Shown one piece after another: positions 684-59,442 of a stretch of 64,000 bases of DNA. Source of the DNA: Patescibacteria group bacterium (GTDB lineage: Bacteria > Patescibacteriota > Patescibacteriia > Patescibacteriales > JAQTRU01); contig JBAZPX010000001.1 of assembly GCA_041645555.1 (NCBI GenBank), positions 204,731-268,730 on the forward strand. The letters run 5' to 3'. Below the pieces are notes generated by a model. That model was given only the letters and a program-made list of their open reading frames with translations. It did no database searches and was not told the DNA's origin. Each line of letters begins with the position of its first letter. Within the stretch, counting starts at the first letter, position 1. A program made the translations under genes and the position numbers.

Positions 684-822
684 TTGTCATCTCGACGATC
701 TCGTACCGCCGAGGCGGGACGAGGGAGGAGAGATCTGTAATAGGATGTTAGCGGTGTTGATAATGTATTATAGATTTCTCCCCGCTCAATGCGCTACGCT
801 TATGAGCGGGTCGAAATGACAA
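684..822. mobile_element. MITE-like non-coding element, family 1 (termini ttgtcatctcga ... tcgaaatgacaa)
   Basis: It has terminal inverted repeats. A homologous copy at 30621-30742 shares gaRatctgtaata, tattatagatttctc and gggtcgaaatgacaa. There is no credible ORF. Confidence 0.7.
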
Positions 823-874: not shown

Positions 875-1060
875 TTAAGAAGAATCCTGGCAGACTGGGC
901 CTGTGCCCTTACCAGTTTTGGCGCAAATACAGACGCCGGAGTATAAGCCATTTTCATTCGCTTTCATCCATGGCAAATACTTTAAAAAATAACCGCATTT
1001 CATGCATTTTTCCGGATTCACTCCCGGATAGGCATTTTTAACAAGAGCAGTAGCGGCCAT
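875..1060 (-). CDS. Small cysteine-rich protein (61 aa), unknown function
   Basis: GGGAGGTG Shine-Dalgarno lies 7 nt upstream of the ATG, and a terminator hairpin follows the stop immediately. It has five Cys, including a CMKCG knuckle and CICAKTGKGTGPVC. Confidence 0.6.
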   Translation of the reverse strand: MAATALVKNAYPGVNPEKCMKCGYFLKYLPWMKANENGLYSGVCICAKTGKGTGPVCQDSS

Positions 1061-2278: not shown

Positions 2279-2686
2279 CTATAAGAGGAATTTTGTTATA
2301 TTAACGTATAAAGCGTAAAGCAGAGCTAATAGAGAAAACGCAAAGATGGCAATGTAATTCCACTGGGCCTTGCTTGACCGCAGGCTCTTGGCAATATAGA
2401 GCAGAACGTTGCGGTCGCCCTTATTAAGTGGCTTATCGTGGTATAATTTATAGATAATTTTCCGTTCAATGATTAATTTTTTCCGTTTGTGCTCTATGTT
2501 GTAGCGGTGGGCAAAGTACCAAACAAAACCGATAGTGCCGATGTACCAGGCAATTTCTACCCAAAGCGCCGAGTAAAAGTTTAAGACGACAATGATGCGG
2601 TAGGCAATCGTAGCGATAATGCCAACCCAAAATACAAGCAGGCGGTAGGATTTGTGCGAAGTTTTCATTTTCTTTTTTTCGGGCAT
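2279..2686 (-). CDS. Small integral membrane protein (about 3 TM helices), unknown function
   Basis: Hydrophobic helices are visible in the translation, and a terminator lies downstream. AT-rich accessory context. Confidence 0.55.
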   Translation of the reverse strand: MPEKKKMKTSHKSYRLLVFWVGIIATIAYRIIVVLNFYSALWVEIAWYIGTIGFVWYFAHRYNIEHKRKKLIIERKIIYKLYHDKPLNKGDRNVLLYIAKSLRSSKAQWNYIAIFAFSLLALLYALYVNITKFLL

Positions 2687-2812
2687 ATTTTAGCAATCAA
2701 TAAATATTAAAGAGTATTGATTATTTATTGCTTTATTTTACCATACTTTTCAATTATGAGAAAGAACGCATATTGCATAGTTAGGTAAAATATTAAAATT
2801 ACTTGTTTTAAA

Positions 2813-3499
2813 ATGAATAATACAACGGATTATAAAATAATTGTTCGCGCTCAAACTGCCGATGAAGAGTTTAACTATCTTATCAAAGTTCTCGGGAAAA
2901 TGTCGTTTTATAATGAGCATGGCTACAAGATACCGATTCCTGATCATCCATTTTTTCTAAAAATTTCCAATAATCTTGATTTGCTTAAATCGTTGGATAT
3001 GGAAGAAGCGAGAGATATATTTAAAAGAGAAGTATATGATTTAGATTATTTTAAAAATGGATTGAAGACCGTAATCAAAGGAATTAGTTTAGCTGAAAAA
3101 GCGATAAAAAGAATGGAAAAATGGAAAAGCTGGGGATTTAAACTTTTTCCAAAATATGAAATTAGGCTGACGGCCTATGGACCGGGAGGATCATATGATT
3201 TTGATGCGGGGGATATTATTATAAAAACAAAGAAAGACGGCATATTTAAGCGTCGCAATCCAATTCATACTATAGTCCATGAAATTGTCCACATCGGAAT
3301 TGAAGAGTGCATTATAAAAAAGTTTAAACTAACGCATATTGAAAAAGAGGGACTTGTGGACGCAATATGCGCAAATTATTTTAAAGATATTTTAATTGAT
3401 TATGCAATACAAGAACGCGGTGATAAAAATATCTTTAATATTATTTCTGAAAATAGTATAGAAAACCTGCCAAAAAAATTGAAGAATACAAAAAAATAA
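2813..3499 (+). CDS. Hypothetical protein with an HExxH motif (putative zinc metallopeptidase-like)
   Basis: 228-aa ORF containing TIVHEIVHIGIEE. I recognise no family. Confidence 0.55.
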   Translation: MNNTTDYKIIVRAQTADEEFNYLIKVLGKMSFYNEHGYKIPIPDHPFFLKISNNLDLLKSLDMEEARDIFKREVYDLDYFKNGLKTVIKGISLAEKAIKRMEKWKSWGFKLFPKYEIRLTAYGPGGSYDFDAGDIIIKTKKDGIFKRRNPIHTIVHEIVHIGIEECIIKKFKLTHIEKEGLVDAICANYFKDILIDYAIQERGDKNIFNIISENSIENLPKKLKNTKK

Positions 3500-3512
3500 A
3501 GATTTTATAAAT

Positions 3513-3986
3513 ATGGCTCAAATTTATCAGACAGAAAATTTTATTGTTGAGGCCGTCGAACAACCACACGTTACTCGCACCGATGGCGGTCATCTGAAAA
3601 TTTCCCCCAAAGTGAGACTTATTGACCGTACGCAACTTTCACCTAAATTGGCGATTGAGCTTATGCGATTGACTATGCTGGTTGGCAAAGCAATGACCAT
3701 CGGCCTAAACAATCGAGGAATTGATGTGGGCAGGATAAACTATCAAGACAATGGCAATTGGAGCGTCTTTAAGCCGGAAGGTCCATATTTGCATATTCAT
3801 TTGTATGGTCGAGCTAAGAGCGCTAAAATTCATAAGTGGGGCGACGCTTGTAATTTCCCACATCGTGAAACTGGATTTTATGATAAATTTGAGCCTTTAG
3901 ATAATAAAGATATTTTAGAAATACAAAAACAAATTGAGATTTTGTTACGGCAAGATAAATATCAAGCTTCGGAGTGGGGGCTTTAA
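3513..3986 (+). CDS. HIT (histidine triad)-like nucleotide hydrolase/transferase family protein
   Basis: Histidine-triad-like motif HLHIHLYGR near the expected position. The size (157 aa) is typical of the family. Confidence 0.55.
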   Translation: MAQIYQTENFIVEAVEQPHVTRTDGGHLKISPKVRLIDRTQLSPKLAIELMRLTMLVGKAMTIGLNNRGIDVGRINYQDNGNWSVFKPEGPYLHIHLYGRAKSAKIHKWGDACNFPHRETGFYDKFEPLDNKDILEIQKQIEILLRQDKYQASEWGL

Positions 3987-4027
3987 AAAATTAAACATCG
4001 CATAACGTGGAACGTATAACATTAAAC

Positions 4028-4140
4028 TGTCATTCCCGCGAAAGCGGGAATCCAGGAGTGAACCATACGAATTAGACTTTGCAGAAAAGAAGATTAAAAT
4101 CACGCAACCCTGGATTCCGGCTCGGAGGCCGGAATGACAA
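4028..4140. mobile_element. MITE-like element, family 2 (tgtcattcccgcgaaagcgggaatccagg ... cctggattccggctcggaggccggaatgaca)
   Basis: About 30-nt terminal inverted repeats, each itself a hairpin. The element is 113 bp with no ORF. Confidence 0.7.
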
Positions 4141-4213
4141 GGGGTGGGAATGGGAGATAGTACGGAATATCCGATTCGCGAGCTAAATAAAATTATTTTT
4201 TATAAAATATATA

Positions 4214-4471
4214 ATGGATAATCTTATGGAAATATTATCTTTAATTTTTTCACTGTTAGCTTTAATCGTTTCTTCTTTTATTGCAATCAAAGGTTGGATG
4301 AGAAATAGAACCATTTACAATCTTGAATTTCATGAATTTTTACCAGACAAGCTTAGAGATGTTGGCAATAAAACAATTCGTGAAAAACTTAATTCCGGTG
4401 ATTATACAATATTGCATGCAAATTATACAGGCGCACAATACAATGTGTTGCTAGGTAAATTAAAAAAATAA
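4214..4471 (+). CDS. Small single-pass membrane protein, unknown function
   Basis: 85-aa ORF with an N-terminal hydrophobic helix (ILSLIFSLLALIVSSFIAI). There is no homology signal. Confidence 0.4.
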   Translation: MDNLMEILSLIFSLLALIVSSFIAIKGWMRNRTIYNLEFHEFLPDKLRDVGNKTIREKLNSGDYTILHANYTGAQYNVLLGKLKK

Positions 4472-4780
4472 TTTTATTCTTAACGCTCACTCTCCCTAAT
4501 TCAGCCACTTTTTAATTATAATAATTATAAATTTATGGAATATTTTGATTGGCCATTTATTATTAATGTAGCAATCGGTATCATTATTGGTGGTATAGTT
4601 TTATATTTACTTAAGGTTGCAGAGGAGTTAATTGTGGAAAAGTTGATGGACAGATAAAAGTAGACAAACTTTAGATATGCCGAAACGTTAGGCGAAATAG
4701 TTATTAAGAAAGGAGAAAAAATGATTTAAAAATAGGGCATATACATAGTAGTGTTATGCGTTGCGCGTTATGCGAATAAT

Positions 4781-6205
4781 ATGGATTTATCCAAGATAAA
4801 AAACATATACATGATCGGCATCAAAGGCGTGGGCATGACTATGCTCGCGCAGTTTTTGGCTGGCAAGGGTTTTTCCGTAAGCGGATCTGATATAAAGGAA
4901 AAATTTATGACGGATGAAGTTTTAAAGGATGCCGGCATAAAAGTGATAGAAGGGTTTTCTAAAGATAATCTTCCGAATGACGTTGATTTAATTATTTATT
5001 CCACGGCCTATAACGGAGAAAACAATGCGGAAGTGGCTAAGGCGCTAGCTGGTAAAACCAAAATCTTAACTTATGCCGAGGCCTTAGCGGAATTTTTTAA
5101 TTCCCATTTTGGCATAGCGGTAATCGGCTCGCACGGTAAAACTACGACCACGGCCTGGCTTGGATTCGTGCTCTCGCAAGCTGGCCTAGAGCCGAACGTT
5201 TTAGTCGGTTCCCGCGTTCCCCAATTTAACGGCTCCAGTCTGGTTGGTAAATCAGATTATTTGGTAGCGGAAATTGATGAATACCAGAATAAGTTTAAAT
5301 ATTTCCAGCCCCGGGCCACAATTCTTACCAATATTGATTATGACCATCCGGATTTTTTCCCGACCAAGCAGGATTATGAAGACGCTTTTATAAAATTTAT
5401 TGAAAAGCTTCCGGCTCGCGGTTTCCTGGTCGCTAATTTTGACGACCCTGCCATACGCAAAACCGTTAATGTCAATTGCCGGGCTAAAGTAATAAGTTAT
5501 GCCTTAAACGAAGTGGCCGATTATGTCGCTTATGATATTAAACAGGGAGCGGGAAAGCAATTTTTTAAAGTTAAGTTCGGTCTGGATGAAGAGGAAGCGG
5601 AAGGAGAAAGAGACGACCTATTGGGAGATTTTTCTATTCAGCTTTCCGGAGCGCATAACGTTTCTAACGCTTTGGCCGTGATTGCGGCAGGGATTGAGCT
5701 GGACGTTCCTTTAAATCTTATCAGGACTTATCTTGAAGAGTTTTCCGGCACGGCCCGGCGCATGCAGGTTTTAGGAGAGTACCGGGGAGCGACGATTATT
5801 GACGATTACGCCCATCACCCCACGGAAATAAAAGCGACCTTGGCCGGCGCCAGGCAGATTTATCCGAATAAAAAAATAATTGTGGTTTTCCATCCTCACA
5901 CTTTTACCCGCACCAAAGCTTTGCTTGATGATTTTTCCAAAAGTTTCGGACAGGCGGATGAAGTGATAGTTTTGGATATTTACGGGTCGGCGAGGGAGAA
6001 ACAAGGCGGGGTTAGCAGTAAAGATGTAGTGGAGAAAATTGGAATCAGGAATCAGGAATCAGGAATTAAGCAAAAATTAAACTATATTTCAACTCTTAGC
6101 GAATGTGAGAAGTATTTGCGGGAGAAGGCGGAGAGGGGAGACGTTATAATTTTAATGGGAGCCGGAGACGTTTTCCGCATCGGGGAGAACTTGGTAAAGG
6201 GCTAA
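4781..6205 (+). CDS. murC: UDP-N-acetylmuramate--L-alanine ligase MurC
   Basis: Mur ligase motifs are present (GIKGVGMT, GSHGKTTTT, DDYAHHPTE). I place the start at the ATG at 4781 (MDLSKIKNIYMIGIKG) rather than the GTG at 4751. Confidence 0.9.
   Translation: MDLSKIKNIYMIGIKGVGMTMLAQFLAGKGFSVSGSDIKEKFMTDEVLKDAGIKVIEGFSKDNLPNDVDLIIYSTAYNGENNAEVAKALAGKTKILTYAEALAEFFNSHFGIAVIGSHGKTTTTAWLGFVLSQAGLEPNVLVGSRVPQFNGSSLVGKSDYLVAEIDEYQNKFKYFQPRATILTNIDYDHPDFFPTKQDYEDAFIKFIEKLPARGFLVANFDDPAIRKTVNVNCRAKVISYALNEVADYVAYDIKQGAGKQFFKVKFGLDEEEAEGERDDLLGDFSIQLSGAHNVSNALAVIAAGIELDVPLNLIRTYLEEFSGTARRMQVLGEYRGATIIDDYAHHPTEIKATLAGARQIYPNKKIIVVFHPHTFTRTKALLDDFSKSFGQADEVIVLDIYGSAREKQGGVSSKDVVEKIGIRNQESGIKQKLNYISTLSECEKYLREKAERGDVIILMGAGDVFRIGENLVKG
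6041..6067 (+). repeat. Heptanucleotide tandem repeat (ggaatca x3 + ggaatt) inside murC
   Basis: Encodes GIRNQESGI, the same unit and frame as murG 1824-1857. Confidence 0.9.
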
Positions 6206-6286: not shown

Positions 6287-8080
6287 ATGATTGAAAAAGA
6301 ATTAAATCTAAAACTGGACAGAAGGCCGATTAATATGCGCCAGTTTTGGCTAAGACTGTGGCGGTTAATCGCGCCGGCGCATAAGCAAATTATTTATTTG
6401 CTTGTTTTAACAATGTTTTTAGAAGGATCTAAATTCATCGGCCCATATTTAGTTAAAAGAATTATTGACTTAATTACCGACTTTAAAGTTGAGTATATAG
6501 AAAATATAATAATTTTGATTATTTTGATATTAATTTCCGATTTGTTAGTCAACCTCATAGATTATTTCGGGGATAAAAAAATATTTAGAATTATTGTCGG
6601 CGTGGAAAGGTATTTATCAATTAACGCCCAGAAGAAAATGGTAGAGCTGGGGCTGGCTTACCATGAAAAAGAAAATACCGGCAATAAAATTTTTAAGATT
6701 CATAGGGGTATTGATAAGATAACCGACCTGATAGGCAATTTTTTCTGGGAAGTCGGGCCGACGATTATCCAGGTGGTTATGACCGGAGTTATTTTATTTT
6801 TGGTTGACTGGCGTTTTGGCTTAATTTTTTCCCTTTTTACCCCGGTTTTTATTTATCTGACCGCGAAGCTGAATAAAAAAATTTCTCCCTTGCGCCGATT
6901 GAGGCATGATTTGTACGAAGAAGCCGCCGGCAAAATGACCCAGACAATAATAAATATTAATACCGTGAAATCATTCGTCCAGGAGGAGAGAGAGGTAAAC
7001 GAGTTTAAAAAGATAAAAGATAAAAGCAAGAAAGTCGCGCTGTTCGAATTTTTTAAGATGCTTAGCTATAATTATTCCCGCAGCGCGGTTATAACCGCCG
7101 GCCGGGTTTTAATAATACTTTTCGGCGTTTATTTGGTTTGGAACGGCGGCATTACTATCGGCAGTTTAGTCTTTATAATTACGATTTCGGAAAAGGCCCT
7201 TGTTTCCCTATTTAGAATTTCCCGGCTTTATGACCGGATTATGGATTCAAGCGAGGCGATTGACCGCCTTTATAAACTGGCTAATCAGGAACTTGATATT
7301 ATTAACCCGGCTAATGGCCTTAAAGTGAAAGACCTGCGGGGCCAGGTTGAGTTTAAAGGCGTAACTTTCATTTATAAAGACAGCCGAGTAAGGGCGCTTG
7401 ATAAAGTAGATTTTAAAATAAATTCCGGCTGCACCACGGCTTTAATCGGCCCGTCCGGCGGCGGAAAAACTACGGTCGCGCGCCTGATTTACCGGCATTA
7501 TGATCCGCAAAGCGGGACGGTATTTTTGGACGATAAGAATTTAAAAGACTATGATTTATATGAGTTTAGAAAATTTATAGCGATTGTGCCGCAGGAAGTA
7601 GAAGTTTTTAATACGAGCGTAAAAGATAATATTTCTTACGCCAACCCGGGCGCTAGCTTGGCGGAGATCAAGGCCGCGGCCAAAATTGCCAATGCCGACG
7701 AGTTTATTGACCAGTTATCGGATAAATATGAAACTTTGGTCGGGGAACGGGGGATTAAACTCTCCGGCGGGCAGAAGCAAAGAATCGGCATTGCCCGGGC
7801 GGTTTTGGCTAATCCGCGGATTTTGATTTTTGACGAAGCGACTTCTAATTTAGACAGCAAAAGCGAAAAATTAATTCAGGAAGCGATGGAAAAAATTAAA
7901 CGGGGCAGAACCGTAATAGTTATTGCCCATCGCTTAAGCACGATAAAGAAAGCGGATAAAATTATTGTTTTAGAAGACGGGAAAGTGTCTGAAGAGGGCA
8001 GCCACTATGAGTTAGCCAGTAGAAATGGCGGCTTGTACGCCGAACTGTTAAAGTTGCAGAGGATGGGGGACGTGGACTAG
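6287..8080 (+). CDS. ABC transporter, fused permease/ATPase (MsbA/ABCB-type exporter)
   Basis: Six-TM N-terminal domain, Walker A GPSGGGKTT, signature LSGGQKQRIGIARA and Walker B ILIFDEATS. The ATG at 6287 is preferred over the TTG at 6272. Confidence 0.85.
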   Translation: MIEKELNLKLDRRPINMRQFWLRLWRLIAPAHKQIIYLLVLTMFLEGSKFIGPYLVKRIIDLITDFKVEYIENIIILIILILISDLLVNLIDYFGDKKIFRIIVGVERYLSINAQKKMVELGLAYHEKENTGNKIFKIHRGIDKITDLIGNFFWEVGPTIIQVVMTGVILFLVDWRFGLIFSLFTPVFIYLTAKLNKKISPLRRLRHDLYEEAAGKMTQTIININTVKSFVQEEREVNEFKKIKDKSKKVALFEFFKMLSYNYSRSAVITAGRVLIILFGVYLVWNGGITIGSLVFIITISEKALVSLFRISRLYDRIMDSSEAIDRLYKLANQELDIINPANGLKVKDLRGQVEFKGVTFIYKDSRVRALDKVDFKINSGCTTALIGPSGGGKTTVARLIYRHYDPQSGTVFLDDKNLKDYDLYEFRKFIAIVPQEVEVFNTSVKDNISYANPGASLAEIKAAAKIANADEFIDQLSDKYETLVGERGIKLSGGQKQRIGIARAVLANPRILIFDEATSNLDSKSEKLIQEAMEKIKRGRTVIVIAHRLSTIKKADKIIVLEDGKVSEEGSHYELASRNGGLYAELLKLQRMGDVD

Positions 8081-10856: not shown

Positions 10857-12857
10857 ATGCAAAAGCTAAAATTTAGAAAAATGTTTGCGGTTATGACATT
10901 TTTTATTGCAGTAGCCGTCGTTAGTATTTTAGCCATTCCACAAGCTAAGGCTGCCAGTTCTACCTCACCCTCCATCACCGTTTTGAGCCCGAATGGGGGA
11001 GAGCAGTGGGAAGCAGGAAAAAACTACACCGTTCGATGGAATTCAACCGGAATTTCTCAAGATGCAAGTATTAGTTTGAATCTTTTAAATAGAACGGCTA
11101 AAACTAATGTCGGGTCATGGATTACTATGGTTCCCCAGAATACTGGTTCGAGTGATTTCGTTGTTCCATCAAATGCGGAGCCAGGATCAAGCTATGAAAT
11201 GCTCATCTCTGTTTGTAGCTCCATTAATGGGCAAGATGTCTGCGCAGATGAACGGAACCAATATTCGGGCGTTGAAGATAGAAGCGACAACTATTTCAGT
11301 ATTATTGCGGCATCTACTGCCTGTACCGATTCCGGCAAAGAGTGCAGTTATCCGGAAACCTGCGGCGGAGGCGGAACTCCTAATGTTTGCGGTCAGGGTG
11401 ATTATAACTGGTATACGGGCAACTCAGGAGAGACATGCGACACAGTATGCAAAAACAAGGGATTAACCTGCCAGGCAGTTGACGATGACAAGAATTGTAC
11501 AATCGGTAAATATTTTGATCCCGGCAACAACTGCGTTTGCTCAAAAGATAACGCCGGTGGAGTTTATGGCTCTCCCTATTATGCCACTGGTTATAACAAT
11601 TGCCACTATTTAGATATTACTCCGTCATGCACTAAAGTTAATAATGTCTGCGCCACTTGCCATCCTATATGCGCTTGTGCGGGATCCAGCAACCAGACGA
11701 AGCCGGATTTAACCGTAACTAGCATTAAGTTTGAGTCGCCAAATAATCTAAAAGGCGAAGATGGTACACTCTCTGTTGTGGTTAAAAATTTGGGCAGTGA
11801 TTTGTCTGGAACAGCAGGATTATTGAGTTGGTACAATAATTTTTCAGCCCAAAATTTTGTATTTAATAGTGCTACGCCGTCTATCTTATCATTTAAAAAC
11901 GACAGGGATGTTTTAACCGCTTCAAAACCGTTAAATACAAATGAGTCAGTTACATTTTCCTGGCTGGGAAATTTCAATACGTCCGGAAATATTTATCTCC
12001 ATTTTACCGTGGATAATAGCAATGAATTGGATGAGTCGAATGAAAAAAACAATACCTTATCGACAGTGATTCAAATAAAAGAAAATTCGCAAGACACAAC
12101 GGAAGTTGTTAAGGATGAGCAGGTTGTAGAAATTGACTACAAGGCTAAGCTTTTGAATAAGGACGAATTCAGCACAATCCTCTCTGAACTTAGAGAGCTT
12201 CGTAATATAATTAAAGAACAGAATGCCAAAATTAAATATCTGGAAAAATTAACCAAGAATGTAGAAAAATTATCCACAAGAATGGAAAGCGCCATTAATA
12301 ATTTTATAACCTATGGCGTAGACGCTAACACTCAAAAACTCGGAGAAGGCGAGAGAGCGGCGGTTATATACTCATATAAAAGCGCTTTTAGTAAGCTTCC
12401 GGAAACCGAAGTCGAGCTAGCAGACGCGATTAAAATAGCCAATGGCCGGTGGCCGAGCATTACTAATGACGAGGCCGAGAAAAAAGCCAAAGAGCAGTTT
12501 CAAAAGATCTACCAAAGAATAGCCGACATGAACAACGCTAATGATAACGCCGCCGTAACCGTCATGGCCTACGGTCTTCGCCAAAAAGCGGAAAATAGGA
12601 ATTTAAATTCAGAAAAACAAGGGATAAAAATTTTTAAGAATATTTACGGCCGCGCTCCAAGCTCAACAGAAGATTGGAATATAATGCAGGCAATTACTTA
12701 TTCCGGTTCGGCCAGGGGAATTGATTCTGACGGAGATTTATTGACTGACGAGAGAGAGGCCGAGCTGGGGACTGATCCGAAAAAGAAAGATACGGACGGC
12801 GATGGGTTTATTGACGGGATTGAAGTAGCTAACGGGCACGATCCATTGAATAAGTAA
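10857..12857 (+). CDS. Secreted modular surface protein: beta-sandwich (PNGGE) domain, Cys-rich region, CARDB-like domain, coiled coil, C-terminal TSP3-like Ca-binding repeats
   Basis: Signal peptide MQKLKFRKMFAVMTFFIAVAVVSILAIPQAKA. Also KPDLTVTSIKF...VVVKNLGS (CARDB-like) and DSDGDLLTDERE..DTDGDGFIDGIE at the C-terminus. The start is moved from 10773 because that extension overlaps the terminator and promoter. Confidence 0.75.
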   Translation: MQKLKFRKMFAVMTFFIAVAVVSILAIPQAKAASSTSPSITVLSPNGGEQWEAGKNYTVRWNSTGISQDASISLNLLNRTAKTNVGSWITMVPQNTGSSDFVVPSNAEPGSSYEMLISVCSSINGQDVCADERNQYSGVEDRSDNYFSIIAASTACTDSGKECSYPETCGGGGTPNVCGQGDYNWYTGNSGETCDTVCKNKGLTCQAVDDDKNCTIGKYFDPGNNCVCSKDNAGGVYGSPYYATGYNNCHYLDITPSCTKVNNVCATCHPICACAGSSNQTKPDLTVTSIKFESPNNLKGEDGTLSVVVKNLGSDLSGTAGLLSWYNNFSAQNFVFNSATPSILSFKNDRDVLTASKPLNTNESVTFSWLGNFNTSGNIYLHFTVDNSNELDESNEKNNTLSTVIQIKENSQDTTEVVKDEQVVEIDYKAKLLNKDEFSTILSELRELRNIIKEQNAKIKYLEKLTKNVEKLSTRMESAINNFITYGVDANTQKLGEGERAAVIYSYKSAFSKLPETEVELADAIKIANGRWPSITNDEAEKKAKEQFQKIYQRIADMNNANDNAAVTVMAYGLRQKAENRNLNSEKQGIKIFKNIYGRAPSSTEDWNIMQAITYSGSARGIDSDGDLLTDEREAELGTDPKKKDTDGDGFIDGIEVANGHDPLNK

Positions 12858-28126: not shown

Positions 28127-28270
28127 AATTCCTAATTCACCTAATTCACCTAATATCTAATTTCTAATAAAATTCCTAATTCAAAAATTTCTAATGCCAA
28201 AAAATTTTTAATTTAAGAATTAGGCATTAAAATTTTTATTAGGAATTAGGTGAATTAGAAATTAGGAATT
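28127..28270. repeat. Long imperfect palindrome built from cctaatt/aattagg words
   Basis: The left arm aattcctaattcacctaattcacctaat... mirrors the right arm ...attaggaattaggtgaattagaaattaggaatt. The centre is near 28210. Confidence 0.85.
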
Positions 28271-30575: not shown

Positions 30576-30620
30576 GGACTAGTTAATTAGGTATTAGGTT
30601 TTAGGTGTTAGTTTATTTTT

Positions 30621-30742
30621 TTGTCATCTCGAGCGTAGCGAGAAATCTGTAATATCCTGCGAACGATAAGGACAAAGTGTTATTGCCGTTATTCGCGTAT
30701 TATAGATTTCTCTCCCGAGTGCTCTCGGGATCGAAATGACAA
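30621..30742. mobile_element. MITE-like non-coding element, family 1 (second copy)
   Basis: Same termini and internal blocks as 684-822. Confidence 0.7.
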
Positions 30743-34757: not shown

Positions 34758-34841
34758 TGCCCAGGGAGAGAATCGAACTCTCATGGACTTGCGTCCACAC
34801 GATTTTGAGTCGTGCGCGTCTACCAGTTCCGCCACCAGGGC
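34758..34841 (-). tRNA. tRNA-Leu (anticodon CAA), class II with long variable arm; CCA not encoded
   Basis: Minus strand reads GCCCTGGTGGCGGAACTGGTAGACGCGCACGACTCAAAATCGTGTGGACGCAAGTCCATGAGAGTTCGATTCTCTCCCTGGGCA. T-arm GAGAG-TTCGATT-CTCTC, anticodon loop CTCAAAA, one U-U mismatch in the acceptor stem. Confidence 0.85.
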
Positions 34842-36262: not shown

Positions 36263-36340
36263 GGGATTTTTAGGATTTTTACGATTCTTGAGATTCTTAA
36301 GATCCTAATAATCCCAAGAATCCTAAGAATCACAATAATC
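36263..36340. repeat. Intergenic period-9 word palindrome (gattcttRa / aatcctaag)
   Basis: gggatttttaggatttttacgattcttgagattcttaagatcc faces aatcccaagaatcctaagaatcacaataatc. Confidence 0.85.
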
Positions 36341-36360
36341 TTATTTTAACATTTTAAATT

Positions 36361-37332: not shown

Positions 37333-37418
37333 TGGGATCTTTAGGATTCTTACGATTTTTGGGATTCTTGGGATTTTTTAAAAACTCTATCTTAAGAATC
37401 CTAAGAATCTCAAGAATC
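37333..37418. repeat. Intergenic period-9 word palindrome (same word family as 36263-36340)
   Basis: gggatctttaggattcttacgatttttgggattcttgggatt faces cttaagaatcctaagaatctcaagaatcc. Confidence 0.85.
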
Positions 37419-37476
37419 CATAGGGAGAAAAGCGTTAGGTGTTATACGTTATGCGAAGGTATGTTATAATATAGGC

Positions 37477-40982: not shown

Positions 40983-43835
40983 ATGAAGAGTGATGATAAA
41001 AAACTAAATATTTTGTCAGTCAGAAAGGAAGAAAGGTCTTCTCGTTTTGTCATTGATTTAAAAAAGGCGGCAGAAGAGGAAGAGGCGGGGAATAAAAAGA
41101 AAGCTGATAATTATGGCCGAGGCGATTTTTTTGACAGACTGGCGGAGTTTGATTTTAAAGAATTCTTCTCAAGAGGCGGTAGCCTGAAAAAAGAATTTTC
41201 TGAATTTTTTAAAAATTATCGCGGGGATAAAACCAATATTGCCAAAGGAGCCGTTAAATTATTAGCCGCCAGCAAAGTACCGCTGGGAGCGAAAGAACCT
41301 TTTATCTTCGGCTCGAAACTGGCGATTGAATGGCTTGATATTTATAGCGGGAAACTAAAAGATCTGGCTTTTTTCAGCTTAATTAAATTTGTCTTCGTTA
41401 TTTTCTTTAAGATAGCCGGCTGGCTTTATAAATTTTGCTATAGAGTCGGCTGGCTGGCTTTATTTCTAATTCGGTTTTTATGGTTAGTTCTTTATGAACT
41501 TATCGGTTTGGTTTTTTCAGCTATCTACAAATTTTATTCAGGAGTTAAATTTATCAGCCAATTTTTGTATGTGAATTTTAGGGATTTTATCCAGGAGATT
41601 TTTGGGATAATAAAAAGATTTATTTTTTTATTGTCAAAAGAATTAAAAATAGGATGGGGTCAATCGTCGGTGAAGGCTAAAAATGTAGTGGAAACCATAA
41701 AGAGAGAAAAAGCGGCAATTAGCCAGCGGCTAGAAGATAGTTATGAGGAGAAGAAGGCAGAGATATTAGTAAACCCCGTTAGAAAAATACAATTTTCTAA
41801 CGGGGTAAAACCAAGGTTGACTTGGCGGCGTTCGGTTTTGGGTTTTGCTTTGGTTTTATTGATCTTAGTTTTGCCTTTTAAAATTTTTGCTTATTATAAA
41901 TCACTTGATTTAGAAAAATTGAAAGGCAAGATACTCGGCGCGTCTGAAGCCGCCCTGGGCGACTTGTCCACGGCTTCGCAATCAGCCACCCGACTTAATT
42001 TCGGCGAGGCGAGCGATAATTTCTCCAAAGCTGGTGAAAATTTTTTAGAGGCGCAAAAGCAGGTATCGGAAATAAATGATGTATTTTTTTCCTTAGCTTC
42101 CCTGGCGCCCGGAGGGGAAATAAAACTGGCGGGAGAGGGCAAGAAAATTTTAGCTGCCGGACAGGTCGCCTCAAGTTTGGGTGAAAATTTAAGTTTGGCG
42201 ATGCAAAGTTTATTTGAAAATAATGGTAGGGATATCCCAGAGATGATAAACAGCTTTACTCAGTATGGGAAAATAACCGCCGGCGAAGCCGCTGATTTAA
42301 ATAATAAATTGGAAGAAATTGATATTAATGCCTTGCCTGACGAATATAAAGATAAGTTTTTATTTTTGCAGGAAAAAACAGAAGTTTTAGAAAAGGGATT
42401 GGCTGAGTTTATTGGTTTAATGGACAAGTTGGGAACCTTTTTGGGGACTAATCAGGATAAGCGGTATTTATTGGTTTTCCAGAATAATGCGGAAATGAGG
42501 GCGAGCGGAGGATTTATCGGCAGTTTTGCTTTAGTAGACATGGCCGGCGGGAAAATAAAAAATATAGAAGCGCCGGGCGGAGGGAGTTATGATACCGAGG
42601 GGGGCTTAAGGGAATTAGTGGCGGCGCCTGAACCTTTGCATTTAGTTAATCCTTTGTGGCATTTTTGGGACGCTAATTGGTGGCCGGATTGGCCGACTTC
42701 GGCTAAAAAGTTAATGTGGTTTTACGAAAGAAGCGACGGGCCGACGGTAGACGGAGTTATCAGCTTTACCCCGACGGTTTTAGAAAAACTTCTGGCCATA
42801 ACCGGCCCGATTGATATGACCAAGGATTACGGCGTGACTTTAACCGCGGAAAATTTTTGGCTAACTACGCAAAAGATCGTTGAAGAAAAACCTAACCCCG
42901 AGGAAGCCGATAAGCCGAAAAAAATTATCGGGGATTTGCTGGATAAAATCATTGAAGATCTGCCGGCGAAATTAGATAAAGAAAAATTAATTAAGATTTT
43001 GGCTCTTGCCGAAGAAAGTTTAAGCGAAAAGCAAATTTTATTTTATTTTACTGACGAAGAGCTGCAAAAAGAAATAGAGAAGCGGGGCTGGGACGGAAAA
43101 ATAAGGGAGGCGGGCAGGGATTATCTGTCAGTGGTTAATACTAATATTGCCGGCGGTAAAAGCGACAAACGAATAAAAGAGAAGATAAATTTGGTGTCAG
43201 AAGTTATGCCCAATGGCTCTGTCATCAATACTTTAAAAATAGAAAGGAGCCATGAAGGAATAAAGAATGAGCCGTTTGCCGGCGTGAGAAATGTGGATTG
43301 GCTAAGAGTTTATGTGCCTTCGGGGAGCGAACTTCTGGAGGCGCAAGGATTCAACCAGCCGGATGAAATTTATTTTGAAGAACCGGAAGATGGATGGACA
43401 AAAGACCCCCTAGTTTATCAAGAAGAAACAACCGCCAAAGTTCATGAAGCGAGCAAGACAAAAATATATAATGAAAGCGACAAGACCGTTTTTGCCAACT
43501 GGTCAATGGTTGACCCGGGGAAAACCGCGACAATTTATTTAAAATACAAACTACCCTTTACTTTAAAAGAGGAAGAAAAGGGAGATGGTTTTATTGATAA
43601 AATAAAAGTGCTTCTTAATCCTGACCAGAAAGAGCTTATGCCCTATACTTTGTTCGCGCAAAAACAAGCCGGCTCTTTAGGAAGTGAAATTAACACCAGT
43701 TTAAAACTGCCTGATAATTTTAAAATAGTCTGGAAATATCCGGCCGGCTTGTCTTTAGCGCCTGGCGGCTGGCAGATAAGTGATAAATTAAATACGGATA
43801 AATATTGGGCGGTGATGTTAGAAAAACAGGACTAG
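40983..43835 (+). CDS. DUF4012 domain-containing membrane protein
   Basis: Diagnostic block RYLLVFQNNAEMRASGGFIGSFALVD, with N-terminal TM helices. The ATG at 40983 is preferred over the TTG at 40971. Confidence 0.8.
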   Translation: MKSDDKKLNILSVRKEERSSRFVIDLKKAAEEEEAGNKKKADNYGRGDFFDRLAEFDFKEFFSRGGSLKKEFSEFFKNYRGDKTNIAKGAVKLLAASKVPLGAKEPFIFGSKLAIEWLDIYSGKLKDLAFFSLIKFVFVIFFKIAGWLYKFCYRVGWLALFLIRFLWLVLYELIGLVFSAIYKFYSGVKFISQFLYVNFRDFIQEIFGIIKRFIFLLSKELKIGWGQSSVKAKNVVETIKREKAAISQRLEDSYEEKKAEILVNPVRKIQFSNGVKPRLTWRRSVLGFALVLLILVLPFKIFAYYKSLDLEKLKGKILGASEAALGDLSTASQSATRLNFGEASDNFSKAGENFLEAQKQVSEINDVFFSLASLAPGGEIKLAGEGKKILAAGQVASSLGENLSLAMQSLFENNGRDIPEMINSFTQYGKITAGEAADLNNKLEEIDINALPDEYKDKFLFLQEKTEVLEKGLAEFIGLMDKLGTFLGTNQDKRYLLVFQNNAEMRASGGFIGSFALVDMAGGKIKNIEAPGGGSYDTEGGLRELVAAPEPLHLVNPLWHFWDANWWPDWPTSAKKLMWFYERSDGPTVDGVISFTPTVLEKLLAITGPIDMTKDYGVTLTAENFWLTTQKIVEEKPNPEEADKPKKIIGDLLDKIIEDLPAKLDKEKLIKILALAEESLSEKQILFYFTDEELQKEIEKRGWDGKIREAGRDYLSVVNTNIAGGKSDKRIKEKINLVSEVMPNGSVINTLKIERSHEGIKNEPFAGVRNVDWLRVYVPSGSELLEAQGFNQPDEIYFEEPEDGWTKDPLVYQEETTAKVHEASKTKIYNESDKTVFANWSMVDPGKTATIYLKYKLPFTLKEEEKGDGFIDKIKVLLNPDQKELMPYTLFAQKQAGSLGSEINTSLKLPDNFKIVWKYPAGLSLAPGGWQISDKLNTDKYWAVMLEKQD

Positions 43836-43848
43836 AAAATTTTTTTCT

Positions 43849-44250
43849 GTCATTGCGAGTCCCGAAGCCTCGGGACGAAGCAATCTCTGGTTAAATAGAA
43901 AAACATGTTAAACGAACGATACTATTTTGTTTATATAAACACCAATAAAACCCACAACGTTTTTTATACCGGAGTGACCAATAATTTATTAAATAGGAAT
44001 TACCAGCATAAGAGCAAAGAGAATAAATTAAATTTCACAGCCAAATATAAGGTAAATAAATTAGTCTATTGCGAGACGTTTTCCGATATCCGTGATGCCA
44101 TTGCCAGAGAAAAGCAAATCAAAGGTGGTTCCAGAAAAGATAAAATCAACCTTATAATTAAATTAAACCCGGAGTGGAAAGATTTAAGCTTGGATATGTA
44201 AAACCAGAGATTGCTTCGTCTCCCGCCTCGGCGGGATCCTCGCAATGACA
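43849..44250 (+). mobile_element. IR-bounded element carrying a GIY-YIG nuclease gene
   Basis: The left arm tgtcattgcgag...cgaagcaatctctggtt is the reverse complement of the right arm aaccagagattgcttcg...ctcgcaatgaca. The ORF stop abuts the right arm. Confidence 0.75.
43905..44201 (+). CDS. GIY-YIG nuclease family protein (98 aa)
   Basis: YFVYINTNKTHNVFYTGVTNNLLNRNYQHK matches the GIY-(X)n-YIG pattern, with REKQIKGGSRKDK at the C-terminus. Confidence 0.85.
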   Translation: MLNERYYFVYINTNKTHNVFYTGVTNNLLNRNYQHKSKENKLNFTAKYKVNKLVYCETFSDIRDAIAREKQIKGGSRKDKINLIIKLNPEWKDLSLDM

Positions 44251-44260
44251 AGGGAAAATA

Positions 44261-45277
44261 ATGGATAAGCAAACCCTGAAAACTAAAATTAAAGCCCAAG
44301 CCAAGAAAATCGCTTGGCGGGCAATCACCACGGTTATTTTAACTCTAACCGCGGTTATTACGGTTTGGGCTTATGCCGCGTTTGTTGAACCCTTAGTCGG
44401 ACCGAATTCCTCTGACCAGGATTTTGCCCAGAATATTTTAGGCAATAACGACGCTAACAATGATTTTAGTTCTTCTAACGTCGCTTCTAACGCTGACGGC
44501 AGTATTATCGAAAGAGAAGAATATTTGCAAACCCAAATCGGCACTTATGCTGACGCCACGACTACGCCGAGTGCGGCAAGTTCGGTGTTCGCGGCGTTGA
44601 AGGGATTGGATTCTTCGTATCAGGAATACACTAGCGGAAGTGGGAACTGGACGGCTCCGGCTGGTGTCTATTTGATTAATGTGCTCCTTGTCGCCGGAGG
44701 CGGAGGTGGCGGTTCTACAGTGGCAAATTCAGGAGCAAGTGGCGGAGGCGGAGGTGGTGAAACTTTTTCTATGATGAATTATAAAGTTGTGCCCGGAACT
44801 GCTTATGCATATGCAGTAGGCGCTGGAGGTTCCGGAGCAACAGGAAACGACGCGGATGGTTCAAATGGCTCAACCTCCACCTTCATGGGTTATTCTGTTG
44901 CGGCTGGTTATGGTGGGAAGAGGGGAACGGTTATGACCGCCGGAAATGGTGGCGGGGTGGGTGGCGGAACAGCCGGCGGTACTCCAGGAAGTGGTACGAC
45001 GATGGGAGGAGCACTTTTTTCGAGGACTGGCGGAGGAGCAGGGAGCAATGGCAATAGCGCCTCCGCCGCTGGAAGCAGTATCGGTTCTGGCGGTGGACTA
45101 ACGGCTCCGGGCGGCGCAAGCTATCGTTCATCTCCGGATGGTCCTTATACGAATGGGGTTGGAATAAATGCACCTGCCAATAGTGGTGCCGGCGGCAGCG
45201 GAGCAACTAATTCGAACGCAGGCGGGATTTTGCCTGGAGGAAATGGTGGTTCTGGTTATATTTTAATAACTTGGTGA
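44261..45277 (+). CDS. Membrane-anchored surface protein: conserved N-terminal module plus glycine-rich C-terminal domain
   Basis: The N-terminus is homologous to the 16374 CDS. The C-terminus has GGGGGGS.../GGNGGSGYILITW glycine-rich repeats. Confidence 0.8.
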   Translation: MDKQTLKTKIKAQAKKIAWRAITTVILTLTAVITVWAYAAFVEPLVGPNSSDQDFAQNILGNNDANNDFSSSNVASNADGSIIEREEYLQTQIGTYADATTTPSAASSVFAALKGLDSSYQEYTSGSGNWTAPAGVYLINVLLVAGGGGGGSTVANSGASGGGGGGETFSMMNYKVVPGTAYAYAVGAGGSGATGNDADGSNGSTSTFMGYSVAAGYGGKRGTVMTAGNGGGVGGGTAGGTPGSGTTMGGALFSRTGGGAGSNGNSASAAGSSIGSGGGLTAPGGASYRSSPDGPYTNGVGINAPANSGAGGSGATNSNAGGILPGGNGGSGYILITW

Positions 45278-45313
45278 GTAATAATAAGTGCAAAAATTAA
45301 AAGAGCTTCCTTT

Positions 45314-45514
45314 TGTCATTGCGAGGAAGGAGTTCCACAGAATTGCGGGACGACTGACGAAGCAATCTAAGGTTAGCTGGAAGTAACAAGAAAATTAAAA
45401 AACATCATTTTATCCGAATAAATACTAATGATAGACATTTAACAGAATCAGACTTTATACCTTTAAACCAGAGATTGCTTCGGCTCCCGCCTCGGCGGGA
45501 TCCTCGCAATGACA
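45314..45514 (+). mobile_element. ORF-less derivative of the GIY-YIG element
   Basis: The right arm at 45466-45514 differs at 1 of 49 nt from 44202-44250. The left arm starts tgtcattgcgag...gaagcaatctaaggtt. The interior is only ~90 nt. Confidence 0.7.
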
Positions 45515-45557
45515 GGAAGTATTATTTTTGAGATTTACATTTTAAATTTTATATTTT

Positions 45558-47561
45558 ATGCCAAACACAAATAAAAATAATAATGATGATTATGAAGGAA
45601 AAATAAAGGTGAGAAACGGCAATTCCGGCTTGTCTGAATTTGTAAAACGCCCCTTGCCGACTGATGATGAAATTAAAGAGTTCGAGGAGGTTATTGGAGA
45701 AGAGGCGCGGGAAGGCGAAATTGACGAGAGTTTGTCGGAAATTTATCAGGATGAAAAGGGCGATATGGTGGATGTCATGAAGCTTAACATAAAAAAGAAA
45801 CGGGGATTTTTCTTTAAGATGCTTAATCTTATTTTTTTTCTGGCGATTTTAGCCGGCGTGGGCTACGGGTTTTATTATTATATTTTCCGCGGCGGCTCTG
45901 ACGCTACGGCTTTGGATTTATCTATTTCGGCTCCGGAAAAAGTTATCGCCGGAGAAGAATTTTTTTCCGTTCTTTCCTACAAGAATTTAAGCCGGGCTGA
46001 CGCCAGCCAGGTAAGGATTGAGGTCACCTATCCGGATAATTTTATATTTTTAGACAGCCAGCCGAAAGCGGCAGAAAAAGATTCGGTTTGGCAATTTGAA
46101 AAACTGGCGACCGGGGAAAACGGCGAAATAAAAATAAAAGGTAAAATAGTTAACGGGAAAGAGACAAATAATATAATTTTAGCCAAAATAACCTATACGC
46201 CGGCGAACTTTTCTTCCGAATTTAAAAAAGAAGCCTCCCAAACTATTTTAGTTGAGGATATCGGGATTGATATAAATTTTGATTATCCTTCCGCCGTGCT
46301 GGTCGGGCAGGAGAACGAAATCGCCGTCAAAGTTAGGCTTAAGGAGAATAATTTCCTGCCTCAGTTCAAACTGACCATTGACCCTTTAGAAAATATGGAA
46401 ATTATTTCCGCGGCCGTAACGGAGGCGGAAGAGAAGAAAGAAGGCCAGAATTTAAAAATAGAGAAGGTGAGAGCCGGCGTTTATAACGTGAGCGAAATAG
46501 GTGCGAGCGAGCAGGAATTTAAAATAAAATACAAACTAAGCAAAAAGATGGCCGATGAGCAGGAAATTGTCATGCGCTTTGCCAATTTAGCCGAAGACGA
46601 TAAAACCCGCTCTTTCCTGGAAAAGAAAATAAAAATCGAAGTGATGAAAAGCGATTTAAATCTGACCTTAATCATAAACGGCTCAAAAAATGACCAGGCG
46701 GTAAATTTTGGCGACCAGCTTAACTATTCCCTTGTCTATAACAATAAAGGCGAAACCAGCATGAAAGACGTGGTGTTGATGGCGGTTTTAGAAAGTGATT
46801 TTCTTAATTGGAAAACCTTAAAAGAAGAAAATAACGGGCGGGAGAAAGGCAATTCTCTTACCTGGACAAAAGAAGAAATTCCGGCTCTGGCCGAGTTAGA
46901 GCCGAACAAAGAAGGAATAATAGATTTTTCTATTGATATTGTTTCTTTGGAAGAAACGCAAGCTATGGCTAGCCGGAGTTTCCAGATAAAAAGCTATGTC
47001 CAATTTAGCATTGGCAATAGCGAAGAATTTAAAGAAAATCTTGATAACCGCAGCAATACGATTATCAATAAAATTAATAGCGACTTATCTTTAAAAGAAG
47101 AAGTAAGATATTTCAGCGCCGACAATGTGCCGGTAGGCAACGGGCCTTTACCGCCTAAGGTCGGGGAAACAACGAGTTTTAAAGTTTATTGGACTTTAGG
47201 CAATAATTTGCATGAGTTGAACGACGCGAAAGTGGAAGTTAGCCTGCCGGAAGATGTAAGCTGGAATAATAAAAACCGGACTTCGGTCGGCGCTATTAAC
47301 TATGACAGCGATTCCCGCAAGGTTACCTGGCAGATAGGCCGGTTGCCGGTTACGGTTTATCGGGCCGATGCCGAATTTAATATAAGTATCACACCGGCAG
47401 ATTCTGACAAAAACAAAATTATGGTCCTGTTGCCCGAGGCTCGCGTTACGGCGATTGACAGCGAAACGGGAGGGGCTATTACCAGCACGACTAAAGCCAA
47501 AACCACAAAGCTGGAAGATGACGAAATCGCGGGGATGAGCAGCGATGGACGGGTGGAATAA
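45558..47561 (+). CDS. Large membrane-anchored surface protein with repeated beta-sandwich (DUF11/CARDB-like) modules
   Basis: One TM helix (FFFKMLNLIFFLAILAGVGYGFYYYIF) followed by repeated ~110-aa segments of similar pattern. The family assignment is tentative. Confidence 0.7.
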   Translation: MPNTNKNNNDDYEGKIKVRNGNSGLSEFVKRPLPTDDEIKEFEEVIGEEAREGEIDESLSEIYQDEKGDMVDVMKLNIKKKRGFFFKMLNLIFFLAILAGVGYGFYYYIFRGGSDATALDLSISAPEKVIAGEEFFSVLSYKNLSRADASQVRIEVTYPDNFIFLDSQPKAAEKDSVWQFEKLATGENGEIKIKGKIVNGKETNNIILAKITYTPANFSSEFKKEASQTILVEDIGIDINFDYPSAVLVGQENEIAVKVRLKENNFLPQFKLTIDPLENMEIISAAVTEAEEKKEGQNLKIEKVRAGVYNVSEIGASEQEFKIKYKLSKKMADEQEIVMRFANLAEDDKTRSFLEKKIKIEVMKSDLNLTLIINGSKNDQAVNFGDQLNYSLVYNNKGETSMKDVVLMAVLESDFLNWKTLKEENNGREKGNSLTWTKEEIPALAELEPNKEGIIDFSIDIVSLEETQAMASRSFQIKSYVQFSIGNSEEFKENLDNRSNTIINKINSDLSLKEEVRYFSADNVPVGNGPLPPKVGETTSFKVYWTLGNNLHELNDAKVEVSLPEDVSWNNKNRTSVGAINYDSDSRKVTWQIGRLPVTVYRADAEFNISITPADSDKNKIMVLLPEARVTAIDSETGGAITSTTKAKTTKLEDDEIAGMSSDGRVE

Positions 47562-59278: not shown

Positions 59279-59344
59279 GTGTTAGCTTTTAGCTTCTAGA
59301 GCGGTATTTTGTATCTCTATTGTTTTATGGTATAATATTATTAT

Positions 59345-59442
59345 TAAGATTCTTAAGACTCTTGGGATATTTATGATTTTTGAGAAACTCGGAACTTTGA
59401 AATCCTAAGAATCTTAAGAATCGCGATAATCCTAAAAATCTC
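59345..59442. repeat. Period-9 word palindrome between an extended -10 element (59327-59335) and the first Cys-rich paralog
   Basis: aagattcttaagactcttgggat ... aaatcctaagaatcttaagaatcgcgataatcc. TGGTATAAT lies just upstream, so the palindrome is probably in the 5' UTR. Confidence 0.8.

Follow-up and report, generated by a model that had tools for sequence, protein, structure and literature searches.

Head-to-head hairpin dimers and a small GIY-YIG nuclease gene in a Patescibacteria chromosome: a probable Ssn/SRM-type system

Described hairpin systems and the elements of this locus

Five inverted-repeat-bounded elements (E1 to E5), one of which encloses a gene for a small GIY-YIG protein, lie in a 64,000-nt stretch of a Patescibacteria group bacterium genome (assembly GCA_041645555.1, contig JBAZPX010000001.1, positions 204,731 to 268,730), referred to here as the window. 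Two described systems come closest to them. The first is that of Chenal et al. (Nat Commun 2025; PMC11893778), in which small single-domain GIY-YIG proteins named Ssn (cd10448, GIY-YIG_unchar_3) are encoded between inverted hairpins. In Neisseria this hairpin is the Neisseria Transformation Sequence (NTS), CGTCATTCCCGCGMAVGCGGGAATCYRG; its generalized form is the Ssn-related motif (SRM). Binding by SsnA is confined to the folded hairpin in single-stranded DNA, with no RNA binding and no cutting of double-stranded DNA; cutting requires the GTC of the tag that precedes the palindrome, and binding requires the C behind the stem (PMC11893778). From the substrates used there (37 nt = 6 + 3 + 28), we derive that the SsnA nick falls on one strand, 3 nt 5' of the tag. 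The enzyme limits transformation by NTS-bearing DNA, and the published homologues show only partial cross-specificity between hairpins. The NTS-ssnA-NTS unit was likened to an insertion sequence (IS), its mobility being left as a hypothesis (PMC11893778).

The second system is the CGTC-tagged repetitive extragenic palindromes (REPs) of Di Nocera et al. (BMC Genomics 2013; PMC3733652). Their tag is CGTC, often TGTC (or CCTC), followed by a stem of 8-9 bp that begins with A-T and T-A pairs, a loop of 4-5 nt, and a tail near CCA. Families CGTC-1 to -4 include dRS3 of Neisseria and RPE-4/RPE-6 of Rickettsia; these repeats "apparently lack a dedicated transposase," and many REPs were suggested to be transcribed (PMC3733652). 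The equivalence of SRM and CGTC-REP is not stated in PMC11893778, which neither cites nor mentions CGTC-tagged REPs, RPEs, or REPINs. A literature search tying GIY-YIG to MITE, REPIN, RAYT, UPF0213, or YhbQ returned nothing relevant beyond these two papers.

We conclude that E1 to E5 are probably head-to-head dimers of SRMs, that is, of CGTC/TGTC-tagged REPs, with E4 enclosing the gene for its cognate Ssn-family nuclease, and that they behave in a REPIN/RAYT-like manner. On this reading, the five elements are a new example, in an uncultivated Patescibacteria genome, of the system described in 2013 and 2025 and not a new kind of transposon.

REPIN/RAYT systems (Bertels and Rainey 2011; Nunvar 2010; Ton-Hoang 2012) consist of GTAG-tagged REP doublets and an HUH Y1 transposase. 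The logic is the same as that seen here: tagged hairpins, inverted doublets as the replicating unit, an enzyme gene lying between the repeats, single-stranded DNA as substrate, insertion that leaves no target duplication, and few enzyme genes beside many nonautonomous doublets. However, the tag is GTAG there and C/TGTC here, the HUH tyrosine transposase cuts and rejoins via a covalent intermediate whereas a GIY-YIG enzyme hydrolyzes the strand with no known rejoining, and RAYTs are usually single-copy and vertically inherited whereas the ssn genes here are multicopy and cross-phylum. The "peel and paste" elements of the IS200/IS605 group likewise have subterminal hairpins in single strands, cleavage a few nucleotides outside, and no duplication, but their enzyme belongs to another family and their ends are unlike and both on one strand, whereas the ends here are inverted copies whose cleavable forms lie on opposite strands.

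The features of the five elements are as follows.

E1, 685-821: gene-less family 1 head-to-head dimer between the ftsW stop codon (669) and a conserved terminator hairpin (838-872)
E1 left arm, 685-735, plus strand: stem ATCTC/GAGAT, nested GC hairpin
E1 right arm, 773-821, minus strand: stem ATTTC/GAAAT, nested GC hairpin
E2, 4028-4139: gene-less head-to-head dimer of the canonical NTS/CGTC-1 type
E2 left arm, 4028-4055, plus strand: TGTC-ATTCCCGC-GAAA-GCGGGAAT-CCAG (tail reading on as CCAGG), continuous 8-bp stem, 4-nt loop
E2 right arm, 4113-4139, minus strand: TGTC-ATTCCGGC-CTCCGA-GCCGGAAT-C, 6-nt loop
E3, 30622-30741: second family 1 dimer, between a convergent TPR gene and SAICAR-synthetase gene
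E3 right arm, 30705-30741, minus strand: intact, ATTTC/GAAAT (the left arm is degenerate)
E4, 43848-44250, plus strand: SRM-ssn-SRM unit
Predicted Ssn nick position at the E4 left arm, 43845-43847, plus strand: top strand, 3 nt 5' of the tag, from the cut-site mapping in PMC11893778
E4 left arm, 43848-43885, plus strand: TGTC-ATTGC-GAG-(GC hairpin)-CGAA-GCAAT-C
ssn-like gene, 43905-44201, plus strand: predicted 98-aa single-domain GIY-YIG nuclease
E4 right arm, 44209-44250, minus strand: TGTC-ATTGC-GAG-(GC hairpin)-CGAA-GCAAT-C
Gly_rich_2-domain gene (Pfam PF21722), 44261-45277, plus strand: bracketed by E4 and E5 (SRM-gene-SRM)
E5, 45314-45514: dimer with E4-type arms and no open reading frame (ORF)
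E5 left arm, 45314-45367, plus strand
E5 right arm, 45473-45514, minus strand: 49/50 identical to the E4 right arm

Nick positions equivalent to that of the E4 left arm would lie 3 nt outside every other tag, on the TGTC-bearing strand.

These elements share with the Ssn/SRM system a small single-domain GIY-YIG gene inside inverted hairpins, an H-GTC tag, an AT-start palindrome, a C after the stem, and many scattered gene-less copies, some of them around variable genes. An arm of E2 is the NTS consensus with one mismatch, and the catalytic Tyr/Tyr/Glu residues align. They differ in that most arms here have a 5-bp basal stem, a GAG/CGAA internal loop, and a nested variable hairpin; activity and cut site are known for the published enzymes and are assigned here by homology, and a comparison of turnover is added here. 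In common with the CGTC REPs they have the tag, the AT stem, the CCA tail (in the E2 left arm), a predominance of tags-outside (HH) dimers, heterodimers of differing stem types, and a location between codirectional or convergent genes. No enzyme was found for those repeats in 2013, whereas here a GIY-YIG gene lies between arms. Only E2 falls within their limits of an 8-9 bp stem and a 4-5 nt loop (its right-arm loop has 6 nt), and the candidate phyla radiation (CPR) lies outside the five phyla of the 2013 study.

Arm structure and the enclosed nuclease

All five elements sit between ORFs, and all are tags-outside (head-to-head) dimers. The preliminary description of this DNA had presented them as several families of elements like MITEs (miniature transposable elements bounded by inverted repeats), and the element sequences quoted in it were found within 1 nt of where it had placed them. 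The shared TGTCAT...ATGACA termini that it reported are true of every one of the five: its two family 1 copies, E1 and E3, have termini and internal blocks in common, and the arms of E4 and E5, its GIY-YIG type, begin and end with the same hexamer as the other elements. The hexamer occurs 29 times in the window versus 14.3 expected, and 10 of these occurrences are element termini; the longer expression TGTCATYBCGM has eight matches (0.14 expected), all of them element termini. The relationship that it drew among the families via their termini holds, but what they have in common exceeds the hexamer and is a hairpin module of tag, stem, and C. A detector built on tag, AT-start stem, and C found 9 of the 10 arms; its hits in the window numbered 12, where Markov simulations predicted 1.2.

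On the TGTC strand, an arm consists of TGTC, a stem half starting with AT, a loop, the complementary stem half, and C. All ten arms open with TGTC, and the tag is left unpaired in folds computed with DNA parameters. Immediately outside the tag, the base at position -1 is T or C in 87% of arms and is the sole constrained outside position. The arms of E1, E3, E4, and E5 start with AT and have 5-bp basal stems and structured loops of 25-40 nt. In E4 and E5 the basal stem is ATTGC/GCAAT, identical in the two left arms, followed by an internal loop of fixed sequence (GAG...CGAA) and an inner GC hairpin that varies. The E1 and E3 arms have stems of ATCTC/GAGAT or ATTTC/GAAAT and also contain nested hairpins, E1 being a heterodimer (ATCTC/ATTTC).

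E2 provides the closest link to the published motifs. Its left arm is identical to the Neisseria NTS consensus at 27 of 28 positions, is the only match in the window to the published SRM expression (0.09 expected by chance), and has every feature of CGTC-1: an 8-bp AT-start stem, a 4-nt GAAA loop, a CCA tail, and a place in a tags-outside dimer. The fold z-scores of E2 as DNA are -5.3 and -3.8. Its right arm had been described as the inverse of the left; it is not an exact inverse and carries a compensatory stem change (ATTCCCGC/GCGGGAAT on the left versus ATTCCGGC/GCCGGAAT on the right) and another loop.

The stems of these arms differ by compensatory changes. In E1, such changes keep the pairing within each arm and create a C-A mismatch between its two arms. 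Across 1.4 Mb of related loci, the complement belonging to a stem class, with C behind it, is found after 23-74% of tags, whereas other class pairings mostly occur at ≤5% (0.13 at most), compared with a background of 2.5% for unrelated stems. This stem covariation is independent of how the arms were detected.

Whole elements can be folded as four-way junctions with z-scores of -5 to -8.4. Such strong predicted folds, together with positions downstream of genes and the suggested transcription of REPs (PMC3733652), would suit conserved structured RNAs or terminators that are only seemingly repetitive. We regard this reading as very unlikely, since no relevant Rfam family matched, either in the whole window at the gathering threshold or in 43700-45700 at E values up to 10; a separate conserved terminator follows E1; the elements are not kept at orthologous positions and have in-frame counterparts within coding regions; and SsnA does not bind RNA (PMC11893778). 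A hammerhead or other small-ribozyme reading of the TGTC/GAAA motifs was also rejected, by eye, as the conserved cores are absent.

The protein encoded in E4 matches PF01541 (E = 1.3e-14, residues 6-82) and has no second domain by Pfam. No NCBIfam model matches it, and a PDB sequence search gave no solved relative; homologues number >7,900. Residues Y10, Y21, R31, E57, E69, and N88 show no change when the protein is aligned with homologues flanked by canonical SRMs. One of these, from Rhizobium (L143; L-numbers, here L008 to L148, denote fetched loci of related genomes or homologues), aligns end to end at 42% identity and is bracketed by exact matches to the published SRM. In this alignment, Y10, Y21, and E69 correspond to Y6, Y17, and E64 of the Rhizobium protein, the residues mutated in SsnA (PMC11893778).

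The preliminary description had noted that the window encodes no transposase and had put forward the GIY-YIG protein as the only candidate enzyme. Pfam annotation of the 45 ORFs bears this out: it reveals no transposase, recombinase, or RAYT, no Y1_Tnp domain, and a single GIY-YIG gene, whose product is a candidate for the cognate enzyme. Enzymes from outside the window may also act, as closely related genomes carry several ssn copies. The host stretch is ordinary chromosome, with the dcw genes ftsW-murG-murC-murB as well as dnaE, thrS, parAB, tgt, and RNase P RNA, and the nearest protein homologues are from named Patescibacteria.

Several further observations concern the surroundings of individual elements. 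The left flanks of E1 and E3 (659-684 and 30598-30621) both hold TTAGGTGTTA(A/G)TT(T)ATTTTTT just outside the TGTC, and their right flanks are unrelated; the common left flank may belong to the element, mark a favored target, or have arisen by chance. The terminator-like hairpin at 838-872 and a stretch of about 250 nt upstream of murG are highly conserved in relatives. The conserved stretch (875-1060, minus strand) probably encodes a 61-aa minus-strand protein, and E1 would therefore lie between convergent genes. E2 is located in a murG-murC gap of about 2.5 kb (2279-4750) that also contains three unannotated ORFs and an 85-aa ORF, and E2 and the 85-aa ORF are framed by a 27-nt inverted repeat (3998-4024 and 4749-4775). 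The distance from murG to the start of murC is only 4 nt in several relatives (L093, L094, L096, L098, and L128).

Gain, loss, and decay in related genomes

Among 53 orthologous ftsW-murG loci, E1 is found only in the window and in L095. It is absent from L088-L092, in which FtsW is 94% identical and the spacer is 322 nt versus 441 nt, and from all of L093-L098 except L095. The block formed by E4, the Gly-rich gene, and E5 downstream of a DUF4012 gene is absent in L144, L145, and L146 (71-81% orthologues). L148 (93%) lacks ssn and has another hairpin-rich spacer at the E4 junction. In L147 (71%), a gene-less NTS-type dimer with stems ATTCC/ATCCC occupies the place of E4, and E5 is missing, the Gly-rich and DUF11 genes lying 27 nt apart; a 92%-identical ssn unit is present at another site of L147. 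That other site is occupied in L145 (4876-5155) by a 5'-truncated ssn pseudogene with an in-frame TAG, whose retained right arm matches the E4 left arm at 37 of 38 positions. Because E1 is polymorphic and E4 and E5 are each missing from some close relatives, the copies are not fixed at orthologous positions. Fixation of that kind would, by the preliminary description, have refuted mobility in favor of conserved structural RNAs or terminators, and that refutation fails.

The ssn genes themselves also occur in changing surroundings. Genes 75-93% identical to that of the window were found in four different contexts, including upstream of VanZ/QueH, between a glycosyl hydrolase gene and the IMPDH gene, and between pheS and pheT; the pheS-pheT contig carries two more ssn copies within 10 kb. 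The Gly-rich gene, which is missing from L144, L145, and L146, present in L147 and L148, and 59% identical in one relative, is a variable, cargo-like gene outside the repeat itself. Its position between two dimers (SRM-gene-SRM) resembles the NTS-gene-NTS arrangement in Neisseria.

The gene-less dimers might alternatively have come first, with the ssn ORF alone invading the center of preexisting dimers in the manner of a free-standing homing endonuclease gene, so that dimers would not derive from gene-bearing units. GIY-YIG domains are those of classic homing endonucleases. The core of E5 contains no convincing ORF remnant, and L147 does have a gene-less dimer at the site of E4. E5 might still be an internal-deletion derivative of E4, although a global alignment of the two matches in the arms only. 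Nevertheless, we consider gene-only homing improbable. The stems of the L147 dimer (ATTCC/ATCCC) are unlike those of E4 (ATTGC), and E4 is therefore something other than the L147 dimer with a gene added, and in L145 the ORF decays in place with an arm kept, which is a route from a gene-bearing unit to a gene-less relic. Furthermore, Ssn enzymes spare double-stranded DNA (PMC11893778), whereas homing by double-strand breaks needs such cutting.

At the left end of E4, the window can be matched to L148 and L146 up to and including TAGAAAATTTTT and no further, the break falling at 43844/43845, which is 3 nt outside the left tag. The coincidence of this break with the published nick position is a single observation and is suggestive of nicking at this site.

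Dimers have also inserted within genes. The murG genes of L111 (1173-1272) and L124 each contain an in-frame dimer of another class, which adds "YRHCEELAASDEAISVSATAEIATLRRGGFARNDI" to a variable loop. L086 has three dimers in frame in a UvrD-like helicase-nuclease (UvrD/PD-(D/E)XK) gene and one in pheT (5064-5158, 5646-5728, about 7148-7250, and 12431-12521), and translated in-frame dimers give peptides such as SVIPAAEPES...GARNDK. RPEs and the CGTC REPs are known to behave likewise, and the in-frame intragenic copies of the CGTC REPs encode 20-30 residues and are often in DNA-repair genes.

Target-site duplications were looked for at 181 dimers. No general duplication was found, the similarity of the flanks being that of the null, and the three exceptions are inside tandem arrays, where identical spacers of 10-16 nt abut both dimer ends (L078 7696-8399, L008 3792-3955, and L055 7938-8320). 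These repeats could reflect either duplication upon insertion or tandem amplification of a dimer together with its spacer.

This result also bears on the original classification as MITE-like, which would make the elements insertion sequences with internal deletions, dependent on a DDE-type transposase that is supplied in trans from outside the window and recognizes the inverted TGTCAT termini. Like classical MITEs such as the Correia elements and Nezha (100-200 bp, with terminal inverted repeats, intergenic, multicopy), they are short, bounded by inverted repeats, and intergenic, and several families have a common terminal hexamer. However, classical MITEs have target-site duplications and termini matching those of a transposase-coding IS, neither of which is seen here. 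The arms fold on themselves, with class-specific compensatory changes that keep the pairs within an arm even where arm-to-arm pairing is lost, as in the C-A mismatch of E1; the gene between such arms across phyla is that of a GIY-YIG nuclease, never a transposase; and no transposase is encoded in the 64 kb. We therefore find the MITE reading extremely unlikely and the term the wrong frame for these elements. In sum, the earlier interpretation is partly supported: it named the right candidate enzyme, and turnover of the elements is borne out; its class name was wrong, and mobilization by the nuclease is inferred.

Taken together, the presence/absence patterns, the decaying pseudogene, the in-frame insertions, and the lack of target-site duplication support turnover of these units, as judged from sequence comparison. 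We propose the following course of events. An arm in single-stranded form would fold into a hairpin with TGTC unpaired, an AT-start stem, a loop that mostly holds a second, variable GC-rich hairpin, and then C. By homology, the nuclease would bind the folded arm, with the stem and the 3' C serving in binding and the GTC in cutting, and would place its nick 3 nt outside the tag, in whichever single strand bears that tag. Nicks on replication, repair, or transformation intermediates may then seed the copying of dimers in a REPIN/RAYT-like manner, and the three stem classes may use the same or paralogous enzymes. A few gene-bearing copies coexist with many gene-less dimers that are gained, lost, and decaying at differing sites, and dimers insert without target duplication and can be carried in frame within genes.

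The main rival to selfish spread of this kind is a domesticated host system on the pattern of Neisseria meningitidis, in which the hairpins mark the chromosome, the nuclease restricts or shapes the integration of incoming hairpin-bearing single strands, and the repeats gather at variable genes by recombination. Control of transformation by NTS-bearing DNA is the sole demonstrated biology of the family (PMC11893778). The variable Gly-rich gene lies between two dimers and is missing from relatives; E1 separates FtsW, conserved at 97%, from MurG, conserved at 75%, a contrast to be expected at a recombination breakpoint; and ssn identity tracks host-gene identity. On the other hand, the in-frame insertions in murG, pheT, and the helicase gene, and the occupation of one spacer by differing stem classes independently, require de novo insertion, and the pseudogenized copy, the several ssn genes within 10 kb, and the cross-phylum identities of 52-78% look like selfish birth and death. 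We thus allow domestication a real but minority chance. The two readings are compatible and may coexist.

Several points weigh against the interpretation of E1 to E5 as Ssn-type SRM dimers with REPIN/RAYT-like behavior. The filled and empty genomes are 71-94% identical in protein, a divergence too large for junctions to be clean at both ends; a clean empty site for E1 was likewise sought, but the flanks in the window and in L088-L092 have diverged too far for its junctions to be defined. The DNA identity of ssn between the window and L147 is 85%, like that of host genes (71-84%), and recent horizontal transfer of the ssn unit between the two is accordingly not supported. The placement of the protein in Ssn/cd10448 is indirect, via homology to SRM-flanked proteins and not by direct alignment with SsnA, and the interrupted-stem arms were assigned by their common layout and by protein homology, not by the published motif. 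The nuclease activity of the 98-aa protein is taken from its homologues, and transposition is inferred. To our knowledge, a hydrolytic GIY-YIG nickase has no strand-joining activity, and a complete mechanism of mobility is thus missing.

Distribution across phyla and significance

The distribution of the system was surveyed with one genome per species, using homologues at 52-78% identity. These come from Patescibacteria, Bacteroidota, Cyanobacteria, Chloroflexota, Planctomycetota, Proteobacteria, Firmicutes, Nitrospirota, and others. In most of 80 homologue loci from many phyla, inverted arms flank the GIY-YIG gene on both sides at 40-90 nt, and the arm has the form (C/T)GTCAT-TGCGAG...GAAGCAAT-C or compensatory variants (ATCCT/AGGAT, ATTCT/AGAAT, and ATCCC/GGGAT). 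The fetched loci together contain 515 arms and 198 tags-outside pairs, with many gene-less dimers of 60-200 nt. Some of the pairs are heterodimers whose arms belong to two stem classes (ATTGC and ATTCC, for instance), which suggests, without proof, that the stem classes are handled by shared or closely related machinery. An Ssn/SRM-type system in Patescibacteria is new here, this group being unmentioned in the main text of PMC11893778.

The published SRM expression, HGTCWYN(0-2)YYVSBRHN(0-5)WNVSBRGN(0-2)RNCYNB, matches none of the 80 homologue loci and only 1 of the 10 window arms, and the arms of E4 that flank the gene are unmatched, although they do have the tag, the AT-start stem, and the 3' C. 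Therefore, a widespread class of arms with an interrupted stem (ATTGC-GAG...CGAA-GCAAT) has probably gone uncounted, and the published numbers of SRM-flanked ssn genes and SRM-rich genomes are probably underestimates. Around the closest homologues, in Bacteroidota, Cyanobacteria, Chloroflexota, CPR, and other groups, this is the commonest arm type.

Homologues occur on replicons of rhizobia, Sphingobium, and Planktothrix; no tblastn match was obtained in 50,697 phage records. On plasmid p1 of Planktothrix agardhii (L142), an ssn homologue of 58% identity (1492-1776) has an MmeI-type restriction-modification gene on one side and the DISARM gene drmA on the other and is thus inside a defense island.

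Other features of the window and its lineage were noted in passing. Inverted arrays of AAGAATCYT-like octamers bracket parB (36273-36343 and 37333-37419), and similar AT-rich palindromes of the TTAGG/CTAAT type are found in other spacers of this lineage; 59340-59430 and 28141-28258 were noted together with these. A tRNA gene (34758-34841) adjoins a gene for a 23S-rRNA-intervening-sequence protein (PF05635; 34981-35427), and a class A RNase P RNA (174.8 bits) is located at 50988-51438.

With the elements placed in this way, the "transposon without a transposase" is an Ssn/SRM system, mostly explained by existing work, and the SRM and CGTC-REP literatures, which are not connected, describe one object. 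For annotation, the hairpins matter in that they yield spurious peptide motifs and break metagenome assemblies. The data sharpen the question of whether Ssn nickases drive CGTC-type REPs. A bolder proposal, which we put forward tentatively and with the chances standing against it, is that Ssn-type nickases are the long-missing mobilizers of the whole CGTC/TGTC-REP superfamily, including dRS3 and RPE-4/6, and that SRM-ssn-SRM units with their gene-less dimers form a nuclease-only mobile class that acts on single-stranded DNA, leaves no target duplication, is bounded by the nick that lies 3 nt outside the tag, and is spread across phyla, including Patescibacteria with their reduced genomes. If this is true, the interrupted-stem arms missed by current search motifs would belong to that nuclease-only class. 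The gain, loss, decay, and in-frame insertion seen in small CPR genomes make it testable how a simple nickase could multiply DNA hairpins.

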